From Candidatus Eremiobacteria bacterium (GTDB taxonomy: Bacteria > Vulcanimicrobiota > Vulcanimicrobiia > Vulcanimicrobiales > Vulcanimicrobiaceae): a stretch of 64,000 nt of DNA. The notes under the pieces were generated by a model that was not told the DNA's origin, searched no databases, and worked only from the letters and a program-made list of their open reading frames with translations. Made by a program: the position numbers and the translations under genes. The stretch is from assembly GCA_963737065.1 (NCBI GenBank), contig CAVTRC010000001.1, positions 1,728,001 through 1,792,000 on the forward strand, read 5' to 3'. Below, piece after piece: positions 1,624-17,934 of this stretch (the first letter of the stretch is position 1; the number at the start of each line of letters is the position of its first letter).

Positions 1624-3709
1624 TTAGCGCAACTTGAATATCGCGACCACATCTCCGTACGCGTACCCCAGCTGAAAATTGCCTCCCGCCGCGACCGCAA
1701 TGTACTGGGTGCCGTTGACTTCGTACGTAACCGGCGGCGCGTTCACGCCAGCGCCCAATTCGTATCTCCATACACGCCGGCCCGTGGTCGCGTTAAAGGC
1801 ATCGAACCATCCGTTGCCTTCGCCCATAAACACGAGGTTGCCGGCCGTTGCAAGTGCGCCGCCGATGAGCGGCTGCGGCGCAGTATATTGCCACGCGATT
1901 TTGCCGGTATCCATGTTGACCGCAACAAACGGCCCGTTCTGAATCCCCTGCTTCGCAACGTTCGTGAACGCGCTGCCCAAGCGGATTTGTCCCGCTGCGG
2001 CGTTCGGTTCTTGCGTCGTAAAGGTCATGAGCTGGTTCATCGCAAGCACGTACATGTTATGCGTCTGCGGCGAGTATGCCGGCGGCGACCACTCCGCGCC
2101 GCCGTTGGCGCCGGGAAGCATGTCCACGCCGGCCTTCGTTGGTTGCGAAAACATGTTCCTCGACATCATGACGTATGGTGCCGATTTGCGGATAAGATTC
2201 CCGGTGCGTCGATCGACGATGAAGATCCACCCCACCTTCCCCGCTTCGCCGGCCGCCGGGATCGTTTGTCCGTTTTCATGCGCGTCGAATAAAATGACGT
2301 TGCTGACCGCATCGTAATCCCAGACGTCGTGCTTGACCTCTTGGTAGTACCATTTCAACGCGCCGGAATTAACGTCGAGCGCGACGATCGAGTCGCTGTA
2401 GAGATTGTCGCCTTGACGCGAGGCGCCGAAGAGATCCGGATTTGGATTTCCGGTCGAGAAAATCAGTAGTCCGAGCGTCGGATCGATTGCCGGCGTGGTC
2501 CACACCATCGCGCCGCCGGTTTTCCACGAATCACCGGAGTATGTTTTTGGATCGGTCGACCACCATTGCCATTTCTTCGCTCCGGTGTTCGCGTCATATG
2601 CCGCGACGAATCCGCGAACCGCCCACTCGCCGCCCGCGCTGCCGACGATCACGTTGCCGCGATAGAGTTGCGGCTGCATCGTTTCGCTGTAGCCCGCGCT
2701 TGCATCGGCAAGGTTGCGCTGCCAAAGCAGCTTGCCGGTCGCGGCATCGAGCGCAAGGAGATTGTCGTCGAGCGTAACGGCGTACACTTTTCCGTATCCG
2801 ATCGGCGACGCCGCGGTTTACCGGACCGCAGCAGATTTGAAACTGCCCCAGGTTATACGTCATCGTCCAATATGTTTCGCCCGTCGCCGCATTGAGTGCG
2901 AAGATTTTCATTTGATTGTTGACGACCGGCGTCGTGATGTACATCACGCCCTTGACGACGATGGGGGTCGTCTCGAAGCTCTCGGGCATTCCGGTTTGCA
3001 CGATCGCTGCGGGCGCAAGCGAAGCGACGTTCGAAGTGGTGATTTCGCGCAACGGCGAATACCGTTCGTTGTCATACGTGCGTCCGCCGAGCAGCCAGTC
3101 TTGCGTGTCGCCGGCGGCGCTTGCCATCATGCCGTCCGACACGTTGACGCTCACCGGCGGTGTCGCAAACGTTACGGTCGTTGGTGCCGCGACGCGAATG
3201 ATTTCGTTTGTATTCGGAAGCGGGCTTCCGTTCTTCGCAAGGCGTTTCGTCGCGTTCTCAAATTCCACGCTCGAAAGCGTCGTTGCATCAAGTGCATGGT
3301 TGCCGCTCGGATATCCGTTTTGCGCAAGAATGTATGCCGTAACGGCGAGATACTGATCTTTGCTGAGCGTGCCCGGCGCGTTCGCCGGCATCTGCTTGCT
3401 GATGAAGTCATAGAGCGGTGCGCCGTTACCATAGCCTTCCAGCGACTTGGCAAAGCGCGTGCCCGTCAATGACGGCGCACTCTGCCCCTGTAATCGCGCG
3501 CCGTGACATTGCGCGCACTTGCCGGAATAGATCGTCGCCCCGGTCGAGGCTTGATCCTCGGTGTAGTAGCCTGCGGCGATCGTTTGCTGTTCGGGCTGCG
3601 ACACGCTTTGGTCTGTCTGTTGTTGTGACGCGCACGACGCAAGAACCGCGAGTAGCACGAAGGCGAGAGCGCGGATTCGCGTCAGCTCTATCCCGTCACG
3701 GTTCTTCAA
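1624..3709 (-). pseudogene. Lipoprotein with N-terminal cytochrome c fused to a PQQ-dependent alcohol dehydrogenase, split by a 1-nt frameshift near 2803-2805 (real lesion or sequencing error)
   Basis: GGAGG then TTG start at 3709; lipobox-like LASC; CAQCH haem motif with downstream Met (QMP); PQQ-ADH motifs RYSPL, ETTPIV and CCGPVNRGVA. The protein continues in another frame as IGYGKVYAVTLD, GGEWAVRG, TGNPNP, WDYD and tryptophan-docking repeats. Confidence 0.85.
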
Positions 3710-3815
3710 CACGTCCTCCAATCTCGCCACGAGAAACATTACGCAACCGAAATCCATCGTCGGAAACGCTCGTCGCCGGCTAGCCCGAGAAGCGTCTCTT
3801 CGTCGATCCGCGCAA

Positions 3816-3844
3816 TTGCCTTTGGGTTTGTCAGGGGGTATAGT
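3816..3844 (+). promoter_or_regulatory. Housekeeping sigma promoter of the dcw operon
   Basis: TTGCCT (3816-3821), 17-nt spacer, TATAGT (3839-3844). Confidence 0.7.
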
Positions 3845-3868
3845 GGTGAGAAGTGGTGTTTGGTGGTG
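3843..3868 (+). promoter_or_regulatory. MraZ operator (direct repeats)
   Basis: GTGGTG at 3843, 3853 and 3863 with exact 10-bp period, just upstream of mraZ. Confidence 0.8.
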
Positions 3869-3883
3869 CCGTGGGGAGGATCT

Positions 3884-4327
3884 TTGCAGACGGACCTGCC
3901 GCGCTTTACGGGATCGGTGGAGCACGCCCTAGACGAGAAGGGGCGGCTAATCGTCCCCGCGCGCTTTCGCGAACGGCTAGGAACCGGCTTCGTCATTTCG
4001 ATTGCCGAGCCGGAGCCGTGCCTCGTCCTCTACCCGGCGCCGGCGTGGGCGCAGGTGTGCGCGCGTTTAGAGGAAGCTCCGCGCAAGGACGAGCGATACC
4101 GCCGTCTCGTCCGGCACATCTTCGCCCACACCGAGGAAGTCGCGTGCGACGCGCAAGGCCGCCTGCTGATCCCCGCGGCACTGCGCTCGTACGCCGGCAT
4201 CACTCGTGACGTCGTCTCGGTTGGCTCCCTCACCCGGGTCGAGATCTGGGCGAAGGAACGCTACGCCGAGTATGCCGCCCCTGGAGGCGAGGTTGCGGAC
4301 CTTATGGCCGACCTCGGACTGTACTGA
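3884..4327 (+). CDS. mraZ: Division/cell wall cluster repressor MraZ
   Basis: LDEKGRLIVPARFR and DAQGRLLIP repeats; TTG start after GGAGG. Confidence 0.95.
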   Translation: MQTDLPRFTGSVEHALDEKGRLIVPARFRERLGTGFVISIAEPEPCLVLYPAPAWAQVCARLEEAPRKDERYRRLVRHIFAHTEEVACDAQGRLLIPAALRSYAGITRDVVSVGSLTRVEIWAKERYAEYAAPGGEVADLMADLGLY

Positions 4328-4342
4328 TGTGGTGCGTGCGTA

Positions 4343-5212
4343 GTGCACCAATCGGTTCTGCTCGCCCAATCACTGGAGTCTCTGGCGATCCGGCCGGATG
4401 GGACTTACGTCGATGCAACGTTCGGCGCGGGTGGCCACTCGCGCGCGATTTTGCAACGGTTGCGTGGTGGCCGTCTGATCGCGATCGACGCGGATCCCGA
4501 AGCCGCGGATCGGGCCCGCGCGATCGACGATCGCGCATTTATCTTCGTTCCTGCCAATTTCTCGGAGCTGCGTCGCGTGCTCGACGAGTGTGGAATCGAG
4601 TTAGTCGACGGAGTCCTCTTCGATTTGGGGGTATCGTCGATGCAGCTGGATGACGGGCAACGCGGGTTTTCGTTTCGCGAAAGCGCGCCGCTCGATATGC
4701 GCATGAACCCGTACGTGGGTCGAAACGCCTATGAGATTCTTGCAACGGTTTCCGAACGCGAGCTCGCGGATATTTTCTTCACCTATGGCGAAGAGCGGGC
4801 TGCGCGGCGCATCGCGCACGCGATCGTCGAACGCCGTAACGAAGGGCGGCTTCCGAAAACGACGCTCGAGCTTGCTGCAATCATCTCCGGGGTCGTGCAT
4901 CGCCCAGGCAAACGCGAACGCATTCACCCAGCGACGCGCGTGTTCCAGGCGCTGCGCATTGCGGTCAACGACGAGCTCAACGTGCTGCGCGAAGGGCTCA
5001 GTGCGGCGATCGATCGTTTGTGCACCGCGGGCCGCGTCGTTGCGATCAGCTTCCATTCGCTCGAAGATCGGATCGTCAAACAGACGTTTCGCGACGACGA
5101 GCGCCTCGAGGTTTTAACAAAGAAGCCGGTCGTCGCCGACGATGCGGAAACGGCTGAAAACCCACGAGCGCGCAGCGCAAAGCTGCGCGCCGCCCAACGG
5201 AAGGCAAGCTGA
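4343..5212 (+). CDS. rsmH: 16S rRNA m4C1402 methyltransferase
   Basis: DATFGAGGHS, DLGVSSMQLD, FHSLEDRIVK, NPRARSAKLR. Confidence 0.97.
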   Translation: MHQSVLLAQSLESLAIRPDGTYVDATFGAGGHSRAILQRLRGGRLIAIDADPEAADRARAIDDRAFIFVPANFSELRRVLDECGIELVDGVLFDLGVSSMQLDDGQRGFSFRESAPLDMRMNPYVGRNAYEILATVSERELADIFFTYGEERAARRIAHAIVERRNEGRLPKTTLELAAIISGVVHRPGKRERIHPATRVFQALRIAVNDELNVLREGLSAAIDRLCTAGRVVAISFHSLEDRIVKQTFRDDERLEVLTKKPVVADDAETAENPRARSAKLRAAQRKAS

Positions 5213-5218
5213 GCGACG

Positions 5219-5674
5219 ATGGCACTCGCGCAAACGGCATACGCGCCGCAACAGAAACCACGCATTCCTAATCCGCGTACCGCGCGCAACGCAACTGAAA
5301 AGCGCATCGTGAAAAGCCACCGGGCGCGCTACGCCTCGCTCGTTCGCGTTGCAACCGTGATTGCACTCGTGCTTACGGGCTTAATGGCATACGTTATGCT
5401 GACCTCGAACGTCACGAGCTTGACGTACGCCGTAGCAAAGGCGCATCACGAGCGCGACGCTTTGCAACGGCAAACGGCGCGTTTGGACGATCGCATCGCC
5501 ACCGCGCGTTCAGACGAACGTCTGGCCGTGATGGCGCGCAAGTTGCACATGGGCGATCCGCAGCTCTTTGCGGCCGTTCACTTGCCCGCGCAACAAATCT
5601 CGACGTCCCATCTTGCGGTGATCGACTCAATCGCAAGTTGGTTCACACCCACCTCACGGGTCGAGCCTCATTAA
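5219..5674 (+). CDS. ftsL: Probable cell division protein FtsL
   Basis: Single TM followed by coiled coil; lies between rsmH and ftsI. Confidence 0.65.
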   Translation: MALAQTAYAPQQKPRIPNPRTARNATEKRIVKSHRARYASLVRVATVIALVLTGLMAYVMLTSNVTSLTYAVAKAHHERDALQRQTARLDDRIATARSDERLAVMARKLHMGDPQLFAAVHLPAQQISTSHLAVIDSIASWFTPTSRVEPH

Positions 5675-5679
5675 GGAAC

Positions 5680-7449
5680 GTGGCTGCTAAAAGCCTCGGT
5701 CATCAGCGACAGTTCGCGCGCGTCGGGCCGATGCGCGCGAAAGTGTTTTTTTATATCTGCGCGCTGATTGCGCTGTTTCTGGCGTGGCGTCTGTGCAAGG
5801 TACAGGTTTTGGACGGGCCGCAGCTTGCGCGTTTGGCTCTCGCGCAGCGCTCGGACACCGTGGAGGTCTTCGCGCGCCGCGGTACCATCACGGATCGCGA
5901 CGGCAACGTGCTCGTGCGGTCGCTCCCCTCTGAGAGCGTCTATGCCGTGCCGCACGATATCGTCGATACGGACTCGACGATCGTCAAGCTGCAGCGCCTC
6001 TTCGGCAAATTATCGCCCGCGACGGTCGATGCGTTACGCGACAAGAAGTTGTGGTTCGTCTGGATCGCGCGCAAAATTCCAAGTGACGTCGCGGATCGCG
6101 TGCGCGCGCTCGAACTCCCCGGCGTGCAGTTGCAGGAAGAAGACACCGGCAAACGCGTCGACATGGCGGGCAAGACGGCGTCGACGCTGCTCGGATTCGT
6201 CGGAACCGATGAAAACGGGCTCGACGGGCTGGAGTACTCGTTCGATTCAGTTCTCAAAGGCCAATCGGGCCGTGTCACGCTTGAAGCCGATGAATTCGGA
6301 CGGCCGATTCCCTTTGGGCACCAGCACGTCGTCAAAGCGGCGCAACCAGGCCTCAACGTCGAGTTGACGCTCGATCCGTACCTGCAATTCGTCGCAGAAG
6401 AAGCCCTGAGCGAACAGGTAACGAAATATCATGCGCTCGACGGTACGGCGATCGTGATGAATCCGTGGACCGGCGAAATCGTTGCCATGGCGAATGTCCC
6501 CAACTTCGATCCCAACCATTTTTGGAAATACAAACAGAACGATCTGCGCGACCGCGCGGTCACCGATGCCTACGAACCGGGCTCGACGTACAAACTCGTG
6601 ACGGCAGCTGCCGCACTCGAATCCGGAAAGGTAACACTCCAATCGCGCTTCCCGGCGCGCGACGCGATCGAAGTGGGCGGGCACGTCATTCACAACGCCG
6701 ACGACGACATGCCTGCGATCGGCGGGACGGAGACGCTCGAACAAATCATTCAATATTCGCACAATGTCGGTGCCGCGGAAGTCGGCATGGCGATCGGCGC
6801 GCGCACGTTCTATGACATGGAACGCAAGGCGGGATTCGGCGGTCCGACCGATGTCGAGCTTCCGGGAGAGAATCCGGGGATCGTTCCGGATCCGAAGGAT
6901 TGGAGCGATTCATCTCTTGCGACGATGTCCTTCGGCCAAGGCGTGTCGGTCACGCCGATTGCGATGGCGCGCTATTATTGTGCGATCGCAAACGGAGGAG
7001 TGCTGATGCGCCCGCGCGTCGTACGCGCGATCACCGATGCGCAAGGGAAAACGGTCTACACGTATCCGCCGGAAATCGAACATCGCGTCTTTTCGGCGAA
7101 GACGGCCGCCGAATTGCGCGGCTTCCTGCGTGCGGTCGTCTTACACGGTACGGGTGATCCAGCAGCGCAAATTCCCGGTTATTCGACCGCTGGGAAGACG
7201 GGCACGGCCGAGATGGTCGTCAACGGTTTTTACGAGCCCGGTTGGTATGCGGCGTCGTTCATCGGGTTCGTTCCCGCACAACGTCCGCGTTACGTCGTAT
7301 ACGTAAAAGTCGAACATCCGATCGGATCGTATTACGGCGGCGTGGTTGCTGCGCCGGCGTTCACGAAGATTGCGCGTGCGGCAATGCTGCATGACGGTGT
7401 GCTGCCGGCAGCGTCCCCGACGCCAAACGCCGGGCCGCACAAGCCGTGA
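5680..7449 (+). CDS. ftsI: Class B penicillin-binding protein (FtsI/SpoVD-like)
   Basis: RGTITDRDG, EPGSTYK (SxxK), SHN, KTG. Confidence 0.93.
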   Translation: MAAKSLGHQRQFARVGPMRAKVFFYICALIALFLAWRLCKVQVLDGPQLARLALAQRSDTVEVFARRGTITDRDGNVLVRSLPSESVYAVPHDIVDTDSTIVKLQRLFGKLSPATVDALRDKKLWFVWIARKIPSDVADRVRALELPGVQLQEEDTGKRVDMAGKTASTLLGFVGTDENGLDGLEYSFDSVLKGQSGRVTLEADEFGRPIPFGHQHVVKAAQPGLNVELTLDPYLQFVAEEALSEQVTKYHALDGTAIVMNPWTGEIVAMANVPNFDPNHFWKYKQNDLRDRAVTDAYEPGSTYKLVTAAAALESGKVTLQSRFPARDAIEVGGHVIHNADDDMPAIGGTETLEQIIQYSHNVGAAEVGMAIGARTFYDMERKAGFGGPTDVELPGENPGIVPDPKDWSDSSLATMSFGQGVSVTPIAMARYYCAIANGGVLMRPRVVRAITDAQGKTVYTYPPEIEHRVFSAKTAAELRGFLRAVVLHGTGDPAAQIPGYSTAGKTGTAEMVVNGFYEPGWYAASFIGFVPAQRPRYVVYVKVEHPIGSYYGGVVAAPAFTKIARAAMLHDGVLPAASPTPNAGPHKP

Positions 7450-8894
7450 GCGTTGCCTTGAAGATGCTGCTCGATCGTCTTCCGGCCAGCACGCAGGTCG
7501 TCGGCGATCCCGACGTCGCCGTGACGAATCTCGAAATCGATTCTCGCAACGTCCGGCCGGGATCGCTTTTTATCGCCGTACGCGGTGAGCACGTCGACGG
7601 GCATGTTTTTATCCCGGATGCGATTGCAAAGGGCGCCGTTGCAGTCGTTGCGCAGAATCGTGGTATCGCGCGATCCGCCGCGACGCTCGTGTACGTTCCC
7701 GACTCGCGCCGCGCGCTCTCCTCGATCGCGGCGGCATTTTACGGGAATCCGTCGCGCGCGCTCGACGTGATCGGTGTGACCGGGACGAACGGAAAGACGA
7801 CGACGACGCACATGGTAGCTTCCATGTTGAACGCCGCCGATCGGAGTTGCGGGATCATCGGGACGGTCGGTGCGGACTTCGGACGCATGCACTGGCAACT
7901 GTCGAACACGACGCCGCTTCCGCCCGAGTTGCACGAACTGCTCGCGCAGATGCGCGACCGCGGCGCGCGAGCGGTCGCGATGGAGGTGAGCTCGCACGCG
8001 CTCGCACTCGATCGCGTCGAGGACATTCACTTTCGGGTCGGCGTGCTGACGAACGTTACGCGCGACCACCTCGATTTTCATGGGACGCTGGAAGCGTATG
8101 CCGCGGCGAAACGCCGCCTTTTTAGTATGTGCGACGCTGCGGTGATCAACGTCGATGACGAACACGGCGCGCGCTGGGCCGATGAACTGCGGCGCAAGAT
8201 CCCGACGCTGACGTATTCCCTCAAGCGCGGTGCGGATCTCGTTGCAACCGATATTGAAGTGAGCTCGAAGGAGAGCCGCTTCAACGTCGGCGGCAAACCG
8301 ATCACTTTGTTGATTCCCGGGCGCTTCAATGTCGCAAATGCGCTCGCCGCGATCGGCGTTGCGTCTCACCTGGGTATACCCTATGAAACGGTCGAGCGCG
8401 CATTGTGGACGATTGCGAGCGTTCCCGGGCGCATGGAGTATGTCGGCGACAACGTCATCCACGCGATTGTCGATTACGCGCACACGCCGGACGCGCTGTA
8501 TCAAGCGTTGTGGGCGCTGCGCGAAGCGACGAGCGCGGTGTCGGTCGTGTTCGGATGCGGGGGCGATCGCGACAAAGGCAAGCGCGTCGAGATGGGACGG
8601 ATTGCTGCCGAACACGCGCGGCGCGTCTATGTGACGAGCGATAATCCACGCAGCGAAGATCCGATCGCAATCATCGCCGAAATAGAACGTGGTATTGGCG
8701 ATCGCCCGCACGTCATCGAACCCGATAGAAGGCGCGCGATCGAGCGCGCAATCGAGGAGGCCGCGCCGGGCGAAATCGTGTTGATCGCCGGTAAGGGTCA
8801 CGAGAAGTATCAGATCGTCGGCGATCAGACGCTGCCCTTCGATGATGCGGATGTTGCGCGAAGCGCGATTCGTTCGCGGAGATTGCGAAAATGA
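7446..8894 (+). CDS. murE: UDP-MurNAc-dipeptide--meso-DAP ligase
   Basis: GTNGKTT, MEVSSH, DYAHTPD and the DAP-type DNPR motif. Confidence 0.97.
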   Translation: MSVALKMLLDRLPASTQVVGDPDVAVTNLEIDSRNVRPGSLFIAVRGEHVDGHVFIPDAIAKGAVAVVAQNRGIARSAATLVYVPDSRRALSSIAAAFYGNPSRALDVIGVTGTNGKTTTTHMVASMLNAADRSCGIIGTVGADFGRMHWQLSNTTPLPPELHELLAQMRDRGARAVAMEVSSHALALDRVEDIHFRVGVLTNVTRDHLDFHGTLEAYAAAKRRLFSMCDAAVINVDDEHGARWADELRRKIPTLTYSLKRGADLVATDIEVSSKESRFNVGGKPITLLIPGRFNVANALAAIGVASHLGIPYETVERALWTIASVPGRMEYVGDNVIHAIVDYAHTPDALYQALWALREATSAVSVVFGCGGDRDKGKRVEMGRIAAEHARRVYVTSDNPRSEDPIAIIAEIERGIGDRPHVIEPDRRRAIERAIEEAAPGEIVLIAGKGHEKYQIVGDQTLPFDDADVARSAIRSRRLRK

Positions 8895-10273
8895 CGCTGA
8901 CGTTCGGCGCTGCGGTTGACGCGACGCACGCAACGGTGTCCGGCACAGAGCACGCGCCGAACGAGGTTCGCGTCGTCACCGATACGCGGGCAATCGCACC
9001 CGGCGATACGTTTCTTGCGCTTCGCGGCGAACGGTTCGACGGACATCGCTACGTCGGTGAAGCGGTTGCGAACGGCGCGGTTGCGGTCATTATCGACGAC
9101 CCGAGCGTGCGTCCCACGTCGACAACGGCGCTCGTGGTTGCCGATACGTTGAAGGCGTACATGGCGCTCGCACGCGCCGCGCGCAATCGTTTCCGCGGCC
9201 GCGTCCTGGCGATCACCGGCAGCACCGGAAAGACGACGACGAAGTCGTTCGTCGCGCAGCTGCTCGCGCTGCACTATGGCACGCGCGTGCTCGCCGCGCC
9301 GGGAAACGAAAACAATCAGATCGGCGTCAGCAAGTTGCTCCTCAATGCCGATAACCATCGCCACGATGTACTCGTCGTCGAAATGGGCGCGCGTCACTTC
9401 GGAGAGATCGCCCAACTCGTCGAGATCGCGCGTCCGCACCTCGGCATTTTGACGAACGTCGGTGACGCGCATCTCGAGATCATGGGCTCGCGAGAGCGAC
9501 TCGAGGAGACGAAGTGGGCGCTGTTTTCCGCCGGCGCGCAAGCGGTGATCAATGCCCGTGATATCGCGTCGATCACGCGCGCGCCGCGACTCGCGCATCG
9601 GCCGCATTGGTTTTACGCCGGCAGCGACCGTTCCGAGATCCCTACGAGCGGGCGCGTTACGGCGATTTGCGATAACCGCTTGATCGATTTTGATATCGAA
9701 ACGGGGCACGATCGCGACGTTCGTGTCGATATCCGCGTGCCCGGCGCTCACAATCGTGAGAACCTTGCTGCGGCGGTTGCCGCAGCGGTTCACTTCGACG
9801 TCGATCTTGATGCGATAGCGGCTGCCATACCAAAACTCGCAATGCCGGAAGGCCGCTACGAACGGATGCAACTACCGTCCGGAATCACGCTCATTTTTGA
9901 TGCGTACAATGCGAACACCGCCGGGATGATCGCCGCGCTCGACGCATTCGCGCAAGAAGAAGCACGGCGCCGTATTGCTTTGCTTAGCAGCATGGCGGAG
10001 CTTGGTGAATCAGCAAGCGAGCTGCATCTGCGCGTCGGCGCGCACGCTGCCGAAACGCAAGTAGACGTCATGCTGGTAGGCGGCGAGTTCGCAGACGAAC
10101 TGTCGGCTGGAGCCGTGCGCGCGGGTCTTTCATCCGAGCGCATCGTTCCGTTTGCCTCGAACGCACAGGCTGCGCAGTGGGTTCGAACGAATGCGCGCGC
10201 GGGCGATGCGGTTTTACTCAAGGGCTCGCGTAAATATCGTCTTGAAGAGATCGTCGAGGACTTGCGCAAGTGA
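8891..10273 (+). CDS. murF: UDP-MurNAc-tripeptide--D-Ala-D-Ala ligase
   Basis: GSTGKTTTK, DAYNAN, LKGSR. Confidence 0.96.
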   Translation: MTLTFGAAVDATHATVSGTEHAPNEVRVVTDTRAIAPGDTFLALRGERFDGHRYVGEAVANGAVAVIIDDPSVRPTSTTALVVADTLKAYMALARAARNRFRGRVLAITGSTGKTTTKSFVAQLLALHYGTRVLAAPGNENNQIGVSKLLLNADNHRHDVLVVEMGARHFGEIAQLVEIARPHLGILTNVGDAHLEIMGSRERLEETKWALFSAGAQAVINARDIASITRAPRLAHRPHWFYAGSDRSEIPTSGRVTAICDNRLIDFDIETGHDRDVRVDIRVPGAHNRENLAAAVAAAVHFDVDLDAIAAAIPKLAMPEGRYERMQLPSGITLIFDAYNANTAGMIAALDAFAQEEARRRIALLSSMAELGESASELHLRVGAHAAETQVDVMLVGGEFADELSAGAVRAGLSSERIVPFASNAQAAQWVRTNARAGDAVLLKGSRKYRLEEIVEDLRK

Positions 10274-10959
10274 CACTAGCCGTAACGCGTAGCGAAGTGC
10301 CGCCCGGCCTGGTTGCGATCCCCGTGCGAACGCGTCTCGTGCGTCCGAACGATGATTTCGTGTCGCTCGTTGCCGAGTGCGTGCGCGGCATTGCGCGTGA
10401 AGGCGACGTGCTTGCCGTTTCGGAGACCGCGGTCGCGATCGCGCAAGGTGAATTCGTCCCGGCCGAATACATTCGTCCCTCGATGCTTGCGCTTGCGCTC
10501 TCACGACGCGCCGGCGCGCTCGCAACGATCAATCAACCGGAGTCGTTGCAACTCGTCATCGACGAAGTTGGCCCGTGGAAGGTCGTGTATGCAGCGCTGA
10601 TGCACGTGCTCGCGCGCGTGCGCGGTAGACGCGGTGCGTTTTACGAAATCATGGGCGATGCAATCACGGCGCTCGACGGATACACCGGTACGCTGCCGCC
10701 GTACGAACGTGCGATCGTCTTTGCGCCGCGCGAGCCCGACGCGTTCAGCGAAGCGGTGTTCGAGCGGGCGGGCGTCGGATGCGCGGTCGTCGATGCAAAC
10801 GACTTGGAGAAAGCCAAGGTTCTCGGTGCGTCGCGCGGCGTGAACCGCCAGACCGTCGAACGGGCGCTGCTCGACAATCCACACGGCAACGGCGACGAGC
10901 AAACGCCGATCGTCGTGCTGAAGTGGCGGGCGGAGGGAGCGAATCCGCTGTGGATCTGA
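10270..10959 (+). CDS. CofE-like (F420-0:gamma-glutamyl ligase family) protein
   Basis: GDVLAVSETAVAIAQG, LDGYTGTLPPY, VVDANDL and DNPHGNGDEQTP resemble the bacterial CofE-like family (recognised by eye). Overlaps the murF stop and the mraY start. Confidence 0.75.
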   Translation: MTLAVTRSEVPPGLVAIPVRTRLVRPNDDFVSLVAECVRGIAREGDVLAVSETAVAIAQGEFVPAEYIRPSMLALALSRRAGALATINQPESLQLVIDEVGPWKVVYAALMHVLARVRGRRGAFYEIMGDAITALDGYTGTLPPYERAIVFAPREPDAFSEAVFERAGVGCAVVDANDLEKAKVLGASRGVNRQTVERALLDNPHGNGDEQTPIVVLKWRAEGANPLWI

Positions 10960-11912
10960 CGTTCGTCGTGACGCGCGTGCCGGCGGGGTTTGCAATCGTC
11001 GCGCTCGGCGGCCTCGTCGTGTTGCCGCTGCTGCGCGGCTTGCAATTCAAGCAGCACGCGTACGAAGACGCACCGGAAACACATCAGAAGAAAAGCGGTA
11101 CGCCGACGATGGGCGGTGTGCTTTTCGCGCTTGCGATGCTGCCGATGCTCGCGAGTCACGAGGTGCCGTTCGAAGCGGCGCTTTTTACGCTCGTCGTGCT
11201 GTGCGCGCTCATCGGATTCATCGACGACTTTCTGGGCGTCACGCGCGGACGAAACCGCGGCCTCACGGCGCGTACGAAGTTTCTTGCCACGGCGCTCGTC
11301 GCAATCATCTTCTTACGCGCAATTACCGATTCGTACGGGTTCTTTCCGCGCGACGTCATTTTCCATGCCGGGGCGCTCGTGTTGAGCGTTCCCCATTGGC
11401 TGTGGATCGTGCTCGGCATTATCGCGATCACCGGAACGATTCACGCCGTCAACCTGACCGACGGTCTCGATGGGTTAGCGACGGGAACGATCCTGCCGCC
11501 GTTGATCGTGCTTGCGGCAATCGGCATCGCGCTCCCCATGGCGGCGCCTGCGGAAGCCGCGCTCCTCGGTATCGGCGCGTGCCTCGGATTTCTTTTATAC
11601 AATCGGCATCCCGCAAAAATGTTCATGGGCGATACGGGATCGCTCGCGCTCGGAGGGTTGCTCTCCGGGATCGCGATCGTCGAAGGCGAGATGCTGCTGT
11701 TGATTCTTATCGGCGGCGTTTTCGTTGCCGAAGCGCTTTCCGTAATTCTCCAGGTGTGGTACTTCAAGGCGACGGGCGGCAAACGGATCTTCCGCATGTC
11801 GCCGCTGCACCATCACTTCGAACTCGGCGGTTTACCGGAAACCGCCGTCACGTTTCGATTTTGGGCGGCCTCGCTCGTTCTCTCGCTGCTTGGATGGGTT
11901 CTCGTTCGATGA
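10950..11912 (+). CDS. mraY: Phospho-MurNAc-pentapeptide translocase
   Basis: KSGTPTMGG, GFIDD, NLTDGLDGL, FMGDTGSL, PLHHHFE. Start inferred at GTG 10950. Confidence 0.96.
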   Translation: MDLTFVVTRVPAGFAIVALGGLVVLPLLRGLQFKQHAYEDAPETHQKKSGTPTMGGVLFALAMLPMLASHEVPFEAALFTLVVLCALIGFIDDFLGVTRGRNRGLTARTKFLATALVAIIFLRAITDSYGFFPRDVIFHAGALVLSVPHWLWIVLGIIAITGTIHAVNLTDGLDGLATGTILPPLIVLAAIGIALPMAAPAEAALLGIGACLGFLLYNRHPAKMFMGDTGSLALGGLLSGIAIVEGEMLLLILIGGVFVAEALSVILQVWYFKATGGKRIFRMSPLHHHFELGGLPETAVTFRFWAASLVLSLLGWVLVR

Positions 11913-13303
11913 TGAGCTTTGATGCGCGTGAAACGGCATTGGTAATCGGGCTCGGAAAGAGTGGCCTTGCATGCGTCGACGTGCTACGCGCGCGCGGCGC
12001 AACGGTCTTTGGCACCGATGAAAAGCCATTAACGGAACTGCAACCCGCCATTGCAGCCATCGAATCGGCAGGTGCAACATTCGTTGCGCCCGCCGCGCTA
12101 CCGTCGGCCGTCACGCGCATCACGTCGGCCGTGCTTTCGCCCGGCGTGCCCTTGACATCGCCGCTCGTGCGCGCCGTTCAGCGCAAAAACGTTCCGGTCG
12201 TCGGTGAAATCGAGCTAGCGTACCGGTTGTGCAAAGCGCCGATCATCGCGGTTACGGGAACCAAAGGCAAATCCACGACCACCGCGCTCATCGGGCACCT
12301 GCTGCGCGAGTGCGGCAAAAGCGTGCGCGTGGGTGGAAATATCGGCAACCCGCTCATCAACGAAGTGCTCGACGTTACACCGGACGACTGGGTCGTGGCG
12401 GAAGTGTCGTCGTTCCAGCTCGAGACGATTCGCTCGTTCAAACCGCGCGTGGCGGTGCTGCTCAACATCGCGCCCGACCACCTCGATCGCTACTACTCGA
12501 TGGACGAGTACGCCGAAGCAAAGTTTCGCATCTTCGCAAATCAATCGTCTGACGATTTCTTCGTCGGCAATCTCGATGACGAACGCATCGCGACGCTCGA
12601 AACGGATGCGGGCGAGCCGCGCATGTCGTCGCGGCAGCTTTGGTTCACGCTGCACGACCGTCACGACCGCGCAACGATTTACGTGCACAACGAGTACGTG
12701 ACATACGCGCCGATCGCCGGCGATCCCCGCCCCGTCTCGGTGATCGCGACGAGCGATATTCCGCTCGCAGGTTCGCACAACGTCCAGAACGTGATGGCGG
12801 CGCTGCTTGCTGCATTCGCGGTGGGCTGCGACGCCGCGCAGTTACGTGAAGCGATCAAGACGTTTCGTCCGATGCCGCATCGGCTGCAAGCCGTCGCGGA
12901 AATCGACGGCGTGCTCTACGTCGACGATTCGAAATCGACGAACCCGGGTTCGGTCGTGGCGGCCTTGCGGGCGTACGAGCGGCCCGCGATTTTGATTGCG
13001 GGCGGCAGATCGAAGGGAACGGATTTTGTCGAACTCGGCGTCGCCGTTCGTCAGCGCGCAAAAACCCTCATCGTCATCGGCGAAGCGGCCGACGAGATCG
13101 CGCAGCATGCGCGCGGCGTTCCGACGCTCCACGCCGCGTCGATGGAAGAGGCCGTCGCAAAGGCGCGCGAAACGGCGGCATCGGGTGACGTCGTGTTGTT
13201 GTCGCCCGGCTGCGCGTCGTTCGACATGTTCCGCTCCGCCGAGCATCGCGGCGAAACGTTCGTCGCCGCGGTCGAAGCACTGAGAGAGACGGCCGGTGCT
13301 TAG
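11909..13303 (+). CDS. murD: UDP-MurNAc-L-Ala--D-Glu ligase
   Basis: GLGKSG, SPGVP, GTKGKSTT, EVSSFQL, DDSKSTN, SPGCASFD; ATGA overlap with mraY. Confidence 0.96.
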   Translation: MMSFDARETALVIGLGKSGLACVDVLRARGATVFGTDEKPLTELQPAIAAIESAGATFVAPAALPSAVTRITSAVLSPGVPLTSPLVRAVQRKNVPVVGEIELAYRLCKAPIIAVTGTKGKSTTTALIGHLLRECGKSVRVGGNIGNPLINEVLDVTPDDWVVAEVSSFQLETIRSFKPRVAVLLNIAPDHLDRYYSMDEYAEAKFRIFANQSSDDFFVGNLDDERIATLETDAGEPRMSSRQLWFTLHDRHDRATIYVHNEYVTYAPIAGDPRPVSVIATSDIPLAGSHNVQNVMAALLAAFAVGCDAAQLREAIKTFRPMPHRLQAVAEIDGVLYVDDSKSTNPGSVVAALRAYERPAILIAGGRSKGTDFVELGVAVRQRAKTLIVIGEAADEIAQHARGVPTLHAASMEEAVAKARETAASGDVVLLSPGCASFDMFRSAEHRGETFVAAVEALRETAGA

Positions 13304-14480
13304 ACAGGCGTCCGGCGCAGCGCGTCTCGCCGAACGGCCGCGATACGACACGCGCGAACACGCGAGTTTGCGTTCGTATGTTGCGATGCCGCCCGATACG
13401 TTACTCTTTGCCGCGGTTGCGGCCCTCGTGGGCATTGGGCTCGTGATGATATTCTCGGCGTCGAGTGCGACAGCGTATGCGGAGCACCATGATGTCGCGT
13501 TTTATTTGAAACGGCAGTTGCTGTGGCTCGTTGCGGGATTAGTCTGCGCGTATTTTGCCTACCGGATCGACTACCATCGGTTGAAACGGGCTGCGCCGTA
13601 CCTTTTGCTCGGCGCAATCTTGGCGCTCGTTGCCGTGTTGGTGCCGCACGTCGGTATGGTCGTCAACGGCGCGCGCCGGTGGATCGGTATATCCGCGGTC
13701 AGCTTTCAGCCGTCGGAGTTCGCGAAGCTCGCAATGATCGTCTATCTCTCGGCAATGCTTGCGAACCGCGGTGACCGGATCACGTCGCTCGCGAAGGGTC
13801 TCTTTCCGCTGTGCATTCCGGTGTTCTTGATGGCGGTACTCGTGCTGAAAGAGCCGGACATGGGGACGGCGAGTTTGCTGATCCTCATTTCGTTCGCAAT
13901 GTTTTTTGCCGCCGGCGCGCGCGTGCCGCATATGGCGGCGATTGCGCTCGCAACCGTACCGCCCGCGCTGATAACGATCGTCACGAACCAGTATCAGCGT
14001 GCGCGCGTTTTCGCGTTCATCAATCCCTGGCGCGATCCGCAAAACACCGGCTTCCACATCGTGCAGTCGCTGCTCGCGCTCGGAAGCGGCGGCTTGATCG
14101 GCGTCGGCTTGGGCGCATCGCGCGCGAAATTTTTCTACCTCCCCGAACAGTACACGGACTTCATCTTCTCGGTCATCGGCGAGGAACTCGGATTGATGGG
14201 CACGATCGCGGTCGTCGTCCTCTTTCTCGTCTTCGCGTATCGCGCGGTGAAGATTGCGATTGCGGCGCCCGACCGCATGGGGTTCTTTCTTGCGATCGGT
14301 TCGATGGCGTGCATCACGATCCAGGCGTTTATCAATATCGGCGTCGTCACGTCATCGTGGCCGGTGACCGGCGTACCGTTACCGTTCATCTCGTTCGGCG
14401 GAAGCTCGTTGATCGTCAATCTCGTTGCCGTCGCATTCATCATGAACGTCGGGCGCCATCGCCGGCTCTCGCGCCCGTGA
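13296..14480 (+). CDS. ftsW: SEDS peptidoglycan glycosyltransferase FtsW
   Basis: GARRWI, QPSEFAK, PEQYTDFIF, GVPLPFISFGGSS. Confidence 0.96.
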   Translation: MLRQASGAARLAERPRYDTREHASLRSYVAMPPDTLLFAAVAALVGIGLVMIFSASSATAYAEHHDVAFYLKRQLLWLVAGLVCAYFAYRIDYHRLKRAAPYLLLGAILALVAVLVPHVGMVVNGARRWIGISAVSFQPSEFAKLAMIVYLSAMLANRGDRITSLAKGLFPLCIPVFLMAVLVLKEPDMGTASLLILISFAMFFAAGARVPHMAAIALATVPPALITIVTNQYQRARVFAFINPWRDPQNTGFHIVQSLLALGSGGLIGVGLGASRAKFFYLPEQYTDFIFSVIGEELGLMGTIAVVVLFLVFAYRAVKIAIAAPDRMGFFLAIGSMACITIQAFINIGVVTSSWPVTGVPLPFISFGGSSLIVNLVAVAFIMNVGRHRRLSRP

Positions 14481-15574
14481 ACGTCGTCTTCACCGGAGGT
14501 GGAACCGGCGGACACCTCTACCCGGCGATTGCCGTGGCCGACGCGCTTCGCGCGCGCGATGCAAACATTACGTTCATCGGTGCGAAGGACCGGTTGGAAG
14601 CAAAAATCGTGCCGCAAGCCGGATACCGGCTGATCACGGTCGCAAGCGGTCCGCTCGTGCGAAGTTCCGCAGAGCGTATGGTGCGTTCCGGATTCTCGAA
14701 CCTGATCGGCATCTTTCAGTCCGCGCGCGCGCTCGCGCGCATCGAGCCGGATATTATCATCGCGACCGGCGGGTACGTCTGCTTTCCGGTCGTTCTCGCG
14801 GCCGCGCTCTTGCGCAGGCATCCCATTGCGTTGCTCGAGCCGAACGCGCATCCCGGATTGACGAATCGCGTCTTGTCGCCGATCGTCGACGAAGTGTGGG
14901 GCTCGTTCTCGCAAGCCGATAAGCATTTCAACGGGAAGTACGTGCACACGGGAATTCCGGTTCGCGCCGGGTTGCGTGTATTGCCGCTGCGTGAAGACGC
15001 CGTTGCGCGTCTGGGCTTGTCGGCATCGCGCCGCACGATTCTCGCGCTGGGCGGAAGTCAAGGCGCGCGATCGATCAACGATGCTTTGTCATCGCTCGTC
15101 AAAGCGAACGGATTGCCCGAGGGCTGGCAACTCATTCACGTGACCGGCGAAAAAGAATACGACCGGGTTCGCCGCGCCGTCAACGGGACGCACGCGGCGA
15201 CGGCCGTGCGTCCCTATCTGGACGATATGGCCGACGCATATGCGGCTGCCGATCTTGTGCTTGCGCGAGCGGGTGCATCGACGCTCGGCGAGTTGACGGC
15301 AACCGGAAAACCCGCGGTGCTCGTGCCGTATCCGTACGCAGCAGACGATCATCAGCACGCAAACGCCGAAATGGTCGTGCGCGCGGGAGCCGCCGTTGTC
15401 GTCGACGATCACGAACTGCTCGCCGGAAAATTGCGCGCGATCCTTGCCGACGTTACGCAGCCCAGCCGCCTCGAAGGCCTGACGGCCGCAGCCGAGCGCG
15501 CGCGTGCTCTTGACCCGGTCGCGTCGATTCTCGCCCGGGTCGACGCATTGACGCCGAGAAAGACAAGCCCATGA
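14477..15574 (+). CDS. murG: Lipid I GlcNAc transferase
   Basis: GGGTGGHLYP, GGYV, GGSQGA, RAGAST, HQHAN. Confidence 0.96.
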   Translation: MNVVFTGGGTGGHLYPAIAVADALRARDANITFIGAKDRLEAKIVPQAGYRLITVASGPLVRSSAERMVRSGFSNLIGIFQSARALARIEPDIIIATGGYVCFPVVLAAALLRRHPIALLEPNAHPGLTNRVLSPIVDEVWGSFSQADKHFNGKYVHTGIPVRAGLRVLPLREDAVARLGLSASRRTILALGGSQGARSINDALSSLVKANGLPEGWQLIHVTGEKEYDRVRRAVNGTHAATAVRPYLDDMADAYAAADLVLARAGASTLGELTATGKPAVLVPYPYAADDHQHANAEMVVRAGAAVVVDDHELLAGKLRAILADVTQPSRLEGLTAAAERARALDPVASILARVDALTPRKTSP

Positions 15575-16965
15575 GTACGCGCGAGCGCGAGGGGGAAAAG
15601 GTGCACTTCGTGGGGGTGGGCGGCATCGGAATGAGCGCGATCGCGCGAATTTTGCTTGCGCGCGGCGCGCGGGTCACTGGTTCGGACGTAAAGGAAACCC
15701 CGCTGACCGCGCGCCTTCGCGATGAAGGCGTCAATGTCACGATCGGTCACGATGCTGCAAACCTCGACGGGGCCGAAACGGTCATCGTCAGCTCGGCGAT
15801 CGACCGGCGCAATCCCGAATACGTCGGCGCACAACGTGCCGGCGTGCCGATTCTTCACCGCGGCGAGATGCTGGCGCGATTACTGCGCGAACGGTGCGGC
15901 ATCGCGGTCTGCGGGACGCACGGGAAGACGACGACGACGGCGATGATGCACGCGGCGCTGCGTGCCGGTGGTGTTGACGCGAGTTTGGTCCTTGGCGGCA
16001 TCGACGGTGTGCTCGGAACCAACGCGCACGATGGACGTTCGGAGTGGTTCGTCACCGAAGCGGACGAATCGGACGGTTCGTTCGTATTGCTCGATCCTGC
16101 GATCGCGATCGTGACAAACATCGAAAACGATCATTTGCAAAGCGACGATGAACTGCCCCAGCTCGTGCGCGCGTTTGACGAATTTCTCGGGAAATTGCCG
16201 CGCGACGGTACAGCCGTGATCGGCGTCGACGATCCGCTCGCCGCATCGCTCGAGGAACGCCCACGCGCGGCGAAGACGATTACGTTCGGGTTCGCCCCCC
16301 GCGCGAGCGTTCGCGCGATGAACGTTCGTTGCGAAGGACTCGGCATGAGCTTCGATGTTGTCGCCGGCGGCGTGTGTCTGGGCACGATCGAGCTCACCGT
16401 GCCGGGCGCCATTAACGTCCAGAATGCGCTCGCCGCAATCGCGGCGGCGCGCGAACTCGAGATTCCCTTCGCGCAGATCGCGGAGGGTATGCGCGCGTTT
16501 CGCGGCGTTCGCCGCCGCTTTGAGATTCTGACGCGCAGCGATCGGATGATCGTCGTCGACGATTACGCGCATCATCCAACCGCCGTACGCGCGACGATCG
16601 CCGCTGCGCGCCAGTATCATGGCGGTCCCGTCCTCGTCGCGTTTCAGCCGCACCGCTACTCGCGAACGGCGTACCTTGCGCGCGATTTCGCCGATGCGCT
16701 GCGCGGCGCCGACCACGTGTATCTCGCGCCCGTCTATGCCGCGTCGGAAGCGCCGATTCCGGGCGTCAGCGAACGTTCCATCGGCGAACCGCTTACATCG
16801 GGTGGCGTGCGCGTCAGCTATGCCTCGCATGTCGACGAGCTTGCGGAGCGGATCTTCGATGAAGCGCCGCGCGGCGCGCTCGTGTTGATGCTCGGCGCCG
16901 GGAACATCACGGACGTCGCATTTCGCTTAGCGGCTCGCGTCGAGCAGCATCCCGTACGGGCGTGA
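15571..16965 (+). CDS. murC: UDP-MurNAc--L-Ala ligase
   Basis: GVGGIGMS, GTHGKTTTT, EADESD, DDYAHHP, FQPHRYSR. Confidence 0.97.
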   Translation: MSTREREGEKVHFVGVGGIGMSAIARILLARGARVTGSDVKETPLTARLRDEGVNVTIGHDAANLDGAETVIVSSAIDRRNPEYVGAQRAGVPILHRGEMLARLLRERCGIAVCGTHGKTTTTAMMHAALRAGGVDASLVLGGIDGVLGTNAHDGRSEWFVTEADESDGSFVLLDPAIAIVTNIENDHLQSDDELPQLVRAFDEFLGKLPRDGTAVIGVDDPLAASLEERPRAAKTITFGFAPRASVRAMNVRCEGLGMSFDVVAGGVCLGTIELTVPGAINVQNALAAIAAARELEIPFAQIAEGMRAFRGVRRRFEILTRSDRMIVVDDYAHHPTAVRATIAAARQYHGGPVLVAFQPHRYSRTAYLARDFADALRGADHVYLAPVYAASEAPIPGVSERSIGEPLTSGGVRVSYASHVDELAERIFDEAPRGALVLMLGAGNITDVAFRLAARVEQHPVRA

Positions 16966-17918
16966 GTTTGACGACCGGTAAAGCCGTTGCATCGTTGCTG
17001 CGCGACGACGATCGCGCCGTGCTTCGCGATATCTTCGGTGAACGCGTGCGTTTCGACGAGCCGCTCGGAACGTTCACGTCGTGGAGAATCGGCGGACCGG
17101 CCGATGCCTTTGCGGTCGTGGAGCGCGAGGAAGAACTGGCGGCCGCGATGCGCCTCTGTTTCAAACGGCGCCTTCCGTGGTTCGTCATCGGTAGCGGCAG
17201 CAACGTGCTCGTCGGCGATGGCGGCATGCGCGGAATCGTCGTGCGTTTGGGTGGTGCGTTCGCGGAAATCAACGCGCGCGTCGATGCAGATGAGATCATC
17301 GTGGACGCCGGCGCGTCCGCCGGCATGGCGGCCGTTACCGCGAAAGCGGCGACCCTCGGCGGGGTCGGGATCGGTTCCCTCGCCGGAATCCCGGGGACGG
17401 TTGGCGGATCGTTGCGCATGAATGCGGGCACCGATCGCGAGATGGGCGATTTCGTGCGTAACGTGTGGGTCCAATCACCGGTAAAGCCTGATCCGCATGC
17501 GATCAGCGTGCAGTATTTCTATCGTCACACGACGCTCGCGCGCGATGCGGTCGTTTCGCGGGTGACGCTGGCGTTCGAACGCGGCGATCCGAAGACCGTG
17601 CGGGAGGAGATGCAGGCGCGCTTGGTGCGCCGCAAGAGCTCGCAGCCGATCGCGCTGCCGAATGCCGGTTCGTGTTTTCGCAATCCTGAAGGCGACAAGG
17701 CGGCGCGGTTGATCGAAGCCGCCGGCGCTAAGGGATGGCGGGTCGGCGGCGCGGAAGTCTCGCCCCTGCACGCGAACTTCATCAACAATCTCGGCGGTGC
17801 AACCGCGCGCGACGTCGCTACGCTCTTGGCACGCGTACGACGCGCGGTGCACGAGCAATTCGGCGTCGAACTACAGCTGGAAGTGCATCTAGTCGGCGTG
17901 TTTATCGATGAGACGTAG
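16962..17918 (+). CDS. murB: UDP-N-acetylenolpyruvylglucosamine reductase
   Basis: IGGPAD, GSGSNVL, GIPGTVGG, MNAG, GSCFRNP, HANF. Confidence 0.95.
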   Translation: MSLTTGKAVASLLRDDDRAVLRDIFGERVRFDEPLGTFTSWRIGGPADAFAVVEREEELAAAMRLCFKRRLPWFVIGSGSNVLVGDGGMRGIVVRLGGAFAEINARVDADEIIVDAGASAGMAAVTAKAATLGGVGIGSLAGIPGTVGGSLRMNAGTDREMGDFVRNVWVQSPVKPDPHAISVQYFYRHTTLARDAVVSRVTLAFERGDPKTVREEMQARLVRRKSSQPIALPNAGSCFRNPEGDKAARLIEAAGAKGWRVGGAEVSPLHANFINNLGGATARDVATLLARVRRAVHEQFGVELQLEVHLVGVFIDET

Positions 17919-17934
17919 TTAGGGTCACCCTAAA

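Follow-up and report, generated by a model that had tools for sequence, protein, structure and literature searches.

A CofE-fold gene between murF and mraY in a Candidatus Eremiobacteria bacterium: a candidate amide ligase acting on peptidoglycan precursors

Few pathways in biology are mapped as well as peptidoglycan synthesis, which is also a prime target of antibiotics. Its described enzymes include Mpl and MurC to MurF, cytoplasmic nucleoside triphosphate (NTP)-dependent amide ligases acting on UDP-N-acetylmuramic acid (UDP-MurNAc) substrates, and the MurT/GatD and AsnB/LtsA-type enzymes, which amidate stem-peptide carboxylates. Biochemical work on Selenomonas and Veillonella has shown a diamine-adding activity since the early 1980s, and it was reportedly found by Kamio and co-workers (1982) to be membrane-bound and to act on lipid intermediates. 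Here we describe a gene of a Candidatus Eremiobacteria bacterium which lies in the division and cell wall (dcw) cluster, between murF and mraY, and whose product, P0001, has the predicted fold of CofE, the coenzyme F420-0:L-glutamate ligase. The gene was analysed within a stretch of 64,000 nucleotides (the window: assembly GCA_963737065.1, contig CAVTRC010000001.1, positions 1,728,001 to 1,792,000), where a first-pass annotation had singled it out as a possible precursor-tailoring enzyme. The fold and the superfamily are known, whereas the literature found describes neither the subfamily nor its position in the dcw operon nor its predicted substrate, and no publication was found which joins the F420_ligase family with peptidoglycan. 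To our knowledge, the CofE fold has never before been linked to the cell wall.

The closest described systems differ in what they have in common with P0001. CofE and FbiB's N-terminal domain (PDB 2PHN, 2G9I, 7ULD) have the same fold and a detectable homology, and their chemistry, in which an NTP and two metals give an acyl phosphate that is attacked by an amine, is probably common to P0001 as well; unlike CofE, the P0001 family is partnered by cell-wall and polyamine genes and lacks an F420 gene context. FolC2 (Chlamydia CT611, TIGR04132) is a member of the CofE superfamily which works on a non-F420 substrate in organisms without F420, and as such it is the precedent for neofunctionalisation. 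MurT/GatD and the AsnB/LtsA-type amidotransferases carry out the same kind of step as the one proposed for P0001, an ATP-dependent amidation of a stem-peptide carboxylate, but their folds (Mur ligase and CobB-type glutaminase in the former, Ntn-amidotransferase and adenylating synthetase in the latter) are unrelated to it. Mpl and the Mur ligases also differ in fold, and no Mur_ligase domain was found in P0001 by Pfam; a Mur ligase is both its neighbour and a fusion partner of the family. Finally, the reaction of the diamine-adding activity of Selenomonas ruminantium and Veillonella, which places cadaverine or putrescine on the D-Glu alpha-carboxyl, is the one tentatively predicted for P0001; this activity has no gene assigned in the literature found, and the P0001 family, which several orders of Negativicutes carry together with a membrane-anchored partner, is linked to diamine-forming decarboxylases in other Bacillota.

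The features of the locus on which the argument depends are the following.

10270..10959, plus strand: the CofE-fold gene (P0001), 229 aa, GTG start; member of a PF01996 subfamily
8891..10273, plus strand: murF (UDP-MurNAc-tripeptide--D-Ala-D-Ala ligase), 460 aa, directly upstream of the CofE-fold gene; TIGR01143 360.5 bits against a cut-off of 288.6
10270..10273, plus strand: GTGA overlap, in which the start codon of the CofE-fold gene shares bases with the murF stop codon
10950..11912, plus strand: mraY (phospho-MurNAc-pentapeptide transferase), about 320 aa from its inferred start; TIGR00445 255.4 bits against a cut-off of 192.05
10950..10959, plus strand: inferred overlap of 10 nt between the end of the CofE-fold gene and the start of mraY, GTGGATCTGA
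3860..18876, plus strand: dcw cluster, from Pfam scans of the window open reading frames (ORFs)

The first-pass annotation had proposed that a 229-aa CofE-like ORF is coupled to murF and overlaps the inferred start of mraY, and both points were borne out. The murF stop codon (TGA, 10271-10273) and the GTG start codon of the CofE-fold gene (10270-10272) overlap, a GAGGA motif lies 9-14 nt 5' of the latter, and the gene ends with a TGA at 10957-10959. The mraY frame is open from 10779, and since the TIGR00445 alignment begins only at ORF residue 79, the likeliest start is the GTG at 10950, which would give a 320-aa MraY with a normal N-terminus (MDLTFVV...) and is preceded at about 13 nt by a GGAGG motif (around 10931). 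As read from the sequence, the codon overlap with murF amounts to translational coupling, and the gene is apparently coupled to mraY too. Three Mur ligase domains were recognised by Pfam in the murF product, and the Glycos_transf_4 and MraY_sig1 families in the mraY product. The cluster runs in the order mraZ, rsmH, ftsL-like, ftsI, murE, murF, the CofE-fold gene, mraY, murD, ftsW, murG, murC, murB and ddl.

Judged by profile searches and a structural model, P0001 is the product of a real gene and has a CofE fold. The window has a G+C content of 61%, and the possibility of a spurious GC-rich ORF is ruled out by the match to PF01996, by 1705 homologues and by a confident AlphaFold2 model. The PF01996 match, at E 9.5e-13 and 48.6 bits where the gathering score is 25, covers residues 19-111 only, corresponding to profile positions 2-89 of 218. 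The 1705 homologues are of near-equal length and were found at E <= 1e-3; the best 120 are 74-100% identical to P0001, and the best-matching relatives are named Candidatus Aquilonibacter, Baltobacteraceae, Vulcanimicrobiaceae and Eremiobacteraeota. The model, built on a 32-sequence alignment, has a pLDDT of 90.8 and a pTM of 0.87, and when it was compared with the PDB by Foldseek, all five matches at E <= 0.001 were A. fulgidus CofE (E 1.7e-10 to 1.7e-9, TM 0.55-0.59, 19% identity), with the next match at E 0.38. Profile and fold searches were needed because a single-sequence PDB search gave CofE at E 0.016 only. The family and four true CofE sequences were also aligned as profiles with hhalign, which returned a probability of 97.8% and an E-value of 1e-12 over 149 columns, joining family columns 24-190 to CofE columns 17-174. 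Across 32 family sequences (28-66% identity), 21 residues are invariant or nearly so, many of them acidic. The predicted homodimer of two P0001 copies (score 0.00, mark 0.42) speaks neither for nor against a CofE-like dimer.

On sequence criteria, however, P0001 is not a CofE equivalog, although databases name it and many of its relatives as such. It scores 30 bits on TIGR01916 against an equivalog cut-off of 180.65 and 28.2 bits on NF009809 against a cut-off of 274. Four true cofE genes served as controls; the two which were scored on the CofE equivalog models, those of T. roseum and Paraburkholderia, taken from plasmids, reached 290 and 272 bits. All four adjoin cofC, cofD, cofH, npdG or genes of F420-dependent oxidoreductases, whereas no F420 gene was present among 192 neighbour proteins scanned in 28 related loci. 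The earlier observation that the window holds no other F420 genes was upheld for the 57 ORFs (14 + 43) scanned with Pfam, among which CofC, CofD, CofG/H, FbiC and F420-dependent families were all absent.

At the residue level, CofE and the P0001 family have in common a 'GD..v..s/q.k.v.....GR' strand-helix motif and a 'P..PD..A' motif, and the P0001 family has an acidic cluster where CofE has 'D-T-x-G-R'. When the invariant CofE motifs (SKAEGR, NAGxDxSN, DTxGRxWRxG, ADExAAA) are traced in the family, the acidic positions have counterparts, K52, E54, 'NAG' and 'GRxWR' are replaced, the C-terminal third is unalignable and the register varies between alignments. The near-invariant D136, D175/N177/D178 and D209/E210 of P0001 align near the invariant D117, D158 and E205 of CofE (T. 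roseum numbering), which we take to be metal-binding residues. The last 40-70 residues of the family cannot be aligned to CofE and carry a near-invariant, family-specific 'NPxG(N/Q)xxEQTP' motif. The CofE residues which hold the deazaflavin, listed as F92, G153-C155 and R234 in PMC10861534, fall in regions unalignable to the P0001 family. True CofE identity was rejected on the failure at the equivalog models and the lack of F420 context in the scanned ORFs; the passing of the PF01996 gathering score, the CofE fold and the public name of many relatives speak in its favour, but the match is confined to less than half of the profile, and together with the unaligned deazaflavin-holding residues this makes it extremely improbable that P0001 is a coenzyme F420-0:L-glutamate ligase.

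The linkage of the gene to the dcw cluster is kept in relatives, as had been anticipated. Contigs from one genome per species were scanned with an 11-sequence alignment, and of the 558 relatives confirmed, the 80 loci closest to P0173, which belongs to the amidase-linked clade, were kept; their 1097 ORFs were called by a greedy script and labelled by BLAST to the window proteins and to Pfam-identified neighbours (the 192 proteins of 28 loci mentioned above). The order murE-murF-P0001-mraY-murD was found in all seven dcw-type loci, the P0001 homologue being 55-72% identical to the window protein; five of the seven carry Eremiobacterota-type titles, and two (L069 and L080), titled as proteobacterial metagenome-assembled genomes (MAGs), show the same order and similar identities. 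Conserved position and co-orientation, by which a dcw core gene is recognised, are thus seen in 7/7 loci, with overlapping codons in the window. In the tree, P0001 forms a clade with four other representatives at 50% identity (FastTree support 100). One of these four, P0126, is a single 736-aa fusion: its N-terminal 475 residues score above the cut-off of the MurF model (321.6 bits against 288.6), and its last 220 residues are 54% identical to P0001. Four more representatives span P0001 and MraY; these are frameshifted or read-through predictions and count for adjacency only. The only cultured member of the phylum has a Gram-negative envelope with a thin peptidoglycan and an outer membrane, according to PMC9758169, a paper on Vulcanimicrobium in which the composition of the peptidoglycan is not given. 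Eremiobacterota also have a second type of family member, 400-430 aa long, which carries a membrane helix at its N-terminus together with an additional domain and is located outside the dcw cluster (L018:7344-8636 from Xenobia, L021 and L054:6265-7467).

The wider subfamily was surveyed with HMMER against 1.84 billion representatives clustered at 50% identity; at E <= 1e-3 this yielded 715 relatives, and at E <= 1e-30 it yielded 88. Of the 150 representatives listed, 38 were scanned with Pfam, and nine of the 38 were rescanned with NCBIfam. Fusions of the P0001 domain are frequent among the 38: six are joined to Amidase_3, five to a glutamine-dependent asparagine synthase domain (P0233 and P0264, two of the three rescanned, pass TIGR01536) and five to TPR repeats, and single cases were found with an adenylate kinase, a GNAT acetyltransferase, a Sapep/PepV-type M20 dipeptidase and a polysaccharide deacetylase. 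The adenylate kinase fusion fits a use of nucleotides by P0001. In the tree, the window clade and the clade of amidase fusions fall together with the membrane-anchored and TPR forms into a 'GN' half, and the fusions to asparagine synthase, GNAT, kinase and M20 into a 'GQ' half.

A hydrophobic helix opens many of the representatives about 400 aa long, and next to it comes a domain of about 150 residues without a Pfam match. In 37 of 39 such sequences, counted without the wrongly picked L047, the positively charged residues come after the helix, the other two being ties, and in the deacetylase fusion (P0223) a membrane helix separates the two domains; a cytoplasmic location of the P0001 domain is predicted both from the position of the charges and from this division. 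The N-terminal part of the anchored forms (the helix and its following domain) is without an NCBIfam match as well. It is also found as a separate gene just 5' of the CofE-fold gene in Syntrophomonadaceae and Acidaminococcales (L025:7393-8016, L036:7463-7972, L043:5363-5899 and L046:4610-5149), and for this reason it is regarded as a conserved partner module.

By the partners of the CofE-fold gene, the 80 loci fall into the following types.

dcw type: 7 of 80 loci
Amidase_3 gene adjacent to the CofE-fold gene: 19 of 80 loci
Amidase_3 fused to the CofE-fold gene: 4 of 80 loci
membrane-anchor domain fused to the CofE-fold gene: 30 of 80 loci
membrane-anchor domain as a separate upstream gene: 9 of 80 loci
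other: 11 of 80 loci (7 picocyanobacterial forms with a diverged N-terminal domain, plus L001, L013, L063 and L064)

Homologues also have cell-wall partners other than murF and mraY: the asparagine-synthase fusions are joined by Amidase_3 and by a SpoVB/MurJ-like flippase, which directly follows the amidase fusion in L011 and L016 (by Pfam, and by NCBIfam for L011); in L023 an unscanned ORF of the same size occupies the flippase position. Amidase_2 and Acyl_transf_3 genes lie upstream in L042, and genes for S-layer homology (SLH) domain proteins are near in L014 and L022. The partner amidases have a full Amidase_3 domain, with CwlD as the closest model, and no signal peptide; L002 and L006 encode a second, unrelated Amidase_3 with a hydrophobic N-terminal signal or anchor segment.

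A second set of neighbours concerns amines. A basic-amino-acid decarboxylase is encoded within three genes of the CofE-fold gene in 24 of the 35 Bacillota-type loci (33 of which are titled Bacillota), and no decarboxylase match among the 1097 ORFs lies elsewhere. Two families are involved: 13 are OKR_DC_1 proteins of the 'ancestral' SpeA/YaaO type of about 480 aa, and 11 are pyruvoyl-dependent arginine decarboxylases (PvlArgDC), two of which were rescanned and pass TIGR00286 (143-146 bits against 107). The SpeA/YaaO type includes arginine, ornithine and lysine decarboxylases, as shown in PMC8503589. At least five different gene orders were observed, among them amidase-P0001-decarboxylase in Pelotomaculum and Desulfotomaculaceae, decarboxylase-amidase-P0001 in Fermentithermobacillaceae and Limnochordales, P0001-(amidase)-PvlArgDC, and PvlArgDC divergent from an anchored P0001 in Syntrophomonadaceae and Syntrophaceticus. 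This adjacency is an independent pointer to the polyamine idea.

Other lineages show other partners. Among the 30 cyanobacterial loci, which range from Prochlorococcus to Oscillatoria, 25 have an anchored P0001 homologue followed by a GNAT-like gene (e.g. L040, L044, L049 and L052), then by ruvX and DUF3727 and, in the non-picocyanobacterial loci, by mltG/yceG; the picocyanobacterial version, of 357 aa, is only distantly homologous to that of 430 aa (E 6.6e-10). In both Acidaminococcales loci the CofE-fold gene is followed by a hydantoinase-family gene and, two genes downstream, by a Hist_deacetyl-family gene, and in L013 it is flanked by an amino-acid permease.

Taken together, the fold, the dcw linkage, the cell-wall partners, the Bacillota decarboxylases and the presence in Negativicutes support, by association, the earlier interpretation of P0001 as a precursor-tailoring amide ligase. 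We give about an even chance to the proposal that it is a cytoplasmic, CofE-fold, NTP-dependent amide ligase which tailors the peptidoglycan precursor, likely by adding an amine to a stem-peptide carboxylate; the catalysis, both substrates and the stage of action are inferred. By analogy with CofE, ATP or GTP and two divalent metal ions would serve to convert a free stem-peptide carboxylate, in all likelihood that at the alpha position of D-iso-Glu, into an acyl phosphate, which would then be attacked by a primary amine. As substrate, UDP-MurNAc-pentapeptide, which MurF produces, or lipid I/II, at the step of MraY, is the most likely; in Eremiobacterota the fusion with MurF and the overlapping codons favour the former, and the membrane-anchored relatives would fit an action on lipid I/II. 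The amine would most likely be a di- or polyamine such as agmatine, putrescine or cadaverine, because two unrelated decarboxylase families have been recruited beside the gene several times. Ammonia or an amino acid could take its place, the former in view of the asparagine-synthase/glutaminase fusions. The partner amidase may edit or recycle precursors, or it may form and break the same bond in conjunction with the P0001 homologue.

Polyamines in peptidoglycan are best documented in Negativicutes, a lineage in which the family is present. With the Acidaminococcales homologue as a query 422 relatives were found, and 1651 with the most populous cluster, P0355; the named matches among the best 120 of each search are from Acidaminococcales, Acidaminococcaceae, Phascolarctobacterium, Sporomusa, Propionispora, Thermosinus, Methylomusa, Dendrosporobacter, a Selenomonadales MAG and a Negativicutes MAG. 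The Negativicutes homologue is accompanied by a separate, membrane-anchored partner gene. The subfamily as a whole ranges over Negativicutes, Eremiobacterota (in the dcw operon), many Clostridia, Limnochordia and Cyanobacteria, and phylum-level hints from the ESM Atlas point to Bacillota, Vulcanimicrobiota, Chloroflexota and Cyanobacteriota. In Negativicutes, cadaverine or putrescine is carried on the D-Glu alpha-carboxyl of the stem peptide, and the SLH domain of OmpM/Mep45 needs this polyamine in order to tether the outer membrane (PMC10628300, PMC12826042, PMC5020339, bioRxiv 10.1101/2021.05.31.446380). No literature was found which names the enzyme or gene attaching the polyamine to peptidoglycan, or which describes this subfamily. 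It is a possible, if tentative, reading that the PF01996 subfamily is the missing peptidoglycan polyamine ligase, placing cadaverine, putrescine or agmatine on the D-Glu alpha-carboxyl of the precursor.

Several observations weigh against the proposed ligase function or its polyamine version. K52 and E54 of the CofE 'SKAEGR' motif are replaced by I and Q in the family, 'NAG' and 'GRxWR' are lost, and the register of 'VVDAND' lies two residues apart between two alignments. The simple tailoring model does not account for a cytoplasmic partner amidase, and the deacetylase domain of P0223 is closest to PgaB/IcaB (below the cut-off) and not to a peptidoglycan deacetylase. Of the 10 Eremiobacterota-type loci, seven of the dcw and three of the anchored kind, none has a decarboxylase or polyamine gene near the CofE-fold gene, nor does any polyamine gene lie in the window, and no decarboxylase is near it in the 2 Negativicutes (Acidaminococcales) or the 30 cyanobacterial loci. 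Veillonella and Selenomonas ruminantium were not among the named best 120 matches of each search, none of which was aimed at them. Cyanobacteria carry the family, and their SLH porins are reported to bind pyruvylated polysaccharide and not polyaminated peptidoglycan. The folD gene adjoins the membrane-anchored form in L018 and in L028, a MAG of the same architecture. Moreover, the 80 loci are a non-random sample of the 558 relatives, biased to the amidase-linked part of the family because they were selected by similarity to P0173.

One alternative is a role outside the cell wall: P0001 would form or recycle a soluble conjugate of a polyamine that has nothing to do with peptidoglycan, the adjacent or fused Zn-amidase would undo the bond, and the dcw position in Eremiobacterota would be secondary. 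The bifunctional glutathionylspermidine synthetase/amidase is an analogy for a ligase and an amidase making and undoing one bond, and here too the amidase paired or fused with the ligase has no signal. The decarboxylases of the 24 Bacillota-type loci, the GNAT-like gene of the 25 cyanobacterial loci and the GNAT fusion, the Hist_deacetyl-family gene of both Acidaminococcales loci and the permease of L013 would all be at home in such a pathway. We nevertheless consider it unlikely, given that the partner amidase belongs to the N-acetylmuramoyl-L-alanine amidase family with CwlD as its closest model, that a MurF fusion exists and murF-P0001-mraY is kept in 7/7 loci, with overlapping codons, and that flippase, Amidase_2 and acyltransferase genes are neighbours and many members are membrane-anchored. 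A place within the cell-wall pathway is granted by another explanation, which denies P0001 the function of an amine ligase and makes it a scaffold or regulator, binding the precursor between MurF and MraY, a D-lactyl ligase or a hydrolase. In the lactyl variant it would ligate at the MurNAc D-lactyl carboxylate freed by the partner amidase, a bond chemically closest to the phospholactyl-glutamate bond made by CofE, and the pairing with an amidase which frees this carboxylate is seen in 23 of the 80 loci. The loss of the CofE-invariant K52, E54 and GRxWR and the distance to the solved relatives (19% identity, TM 0.55-0.59) point the same way. Against it stand the 21 invariant or near-invariant residues across 32 sequences, which are expected of an enzyme, and the adenylate kinase fusion; the Eremiobacterota gene, in addition, has no accompanying amidase, and MraY needs a pentapeptide. 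This explanation appears decidedly unlikely.

A folate role is the remaining rival: P0001 would be a FolC2-type enzyme, which adds glutamate to dihydropteroate or to folates. MurF is related to FolC, and the FolD gene adjoins the anchored form in the two loci named above. CT611, a COG1478 member and the one CofE homologue described with another function, complements an E. coli folC mutant, so that a member of this group can replace FolC (PMC1971073). P0001, by contrast, has no match at E <= 0.01 to TIGR04132 ('putative folate metabolism gamma-glutamate ligase'), a model on which two true CofE controls score 64-80 bits; the fused Mur ligase is MurF by the model cut-off, membrane anchors and amidase and decarboxylase partners are unfitting for folate metabolism, and neither folP nor folK was present among the 192 neighbour proteins. 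The FolC2 identity was rejected on the missing TIGR04132 match and the non-folate gene context, and we consider it very improbable.

Some family members fall outside the loci discussed above. P0150 and P0185 have long N-termini rich in Ser, Ala, Arg and Pro in place of the membrane helix, resembling algal plastid transit peptides, and their nearest ESM Atlas clusters are cyanobacterial (71-90% Bacteria); as a lead from the sequences, they may be eukaryotic plastid members. A tblastn search of P0001 against plasmids found nothing. Relatives 31-32% identical over 87-88% of its length were found by tblastn in the phage records MT838774.1 and MT835656.1 (unannotated 'Bacteriophage sp.' contigs), which may be mis-binned bacterial DNA. 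Two plasmid genes named 'coenzyme F420-0:L-glutamate ligase', L083:5986-6711 of Lactobacillus amylovorus and L084:5899-6669 of Bacillus paranthracis, belong to hosts in which F420 synthesis is not expected; one is flanked by a NUDIX hydrolase and a MazG-like gene, the other by genes for a shikimate dehydrogenase, a TIM-barrel protein and a methionine adenosyltransferase, and both appear to represent further branches of the superfamily that carry a wrong name.

Elsewhere in the window, no further copy of the family was found, nor any decarboxylase, Amidase_3 or membrane-anchor domain, all of which were looked for. The dcw cluster ends at ddl (17935-18876), followed by an amidohydrolase with a twin-arginine translocation (TAT) signal (18937-20325); ftsQ, ftsA and ftsZ were found neither after ddl nor elsewhere in the window. 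On the minus strand, at 1624-3925, a dehydrogenase dependent on pyrroloquinoline quinone (PQQ), with a cytochrome c domain, is apparently split in two overlapping ORFs, of which 3925..2594 holds the cytochrome c domain and PQQ profile positions 3-105 and 2787..1624 the positions from 119 onwards, which suggests a frameshift, a pseudogene or a sequencing error. Two response-regulator/HD_5 (HD-GYP-like) genes lie at 43685-44674 and 51335-52387. An ammonium transporter gene and two tandem AA_permease_2 genes follow each other on the minus strand at 46188-50098; the latter family includes polyamine/amino-acid antiporters, and nothing was found tying the window copies to the CofE-fold gene.

If the proposed function is true, a conserved extra enzyme between MurF and MraY would constitute a new step of peptidoglycan synthesis. 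It would also correct a systematic mis-annotation, as 'coenzyme F420-0:L-glutamate ligase', on at least 1705 homologue clusters, which distorts surveys of F420 distribution. If the polyamine reading holds, the family would supply the gene for an activity which has lacked one for about 40 years. Peptidoglycan polyamination underlies outer-membrane tethering in diderm Firmicutes, according to PMC10628300 and bioRxiv 10.1101/2021.05.31.446380, and on the same reading many Terrabacteria would have polyaminated peptidoglycan and, with it, an outer membrane or S-layer anchored through SLH/OmpM, perhaps as an ancestral trait of the group. For Eremiobacterota, the gene would offer a first handle on the chemistry of the cell wall.

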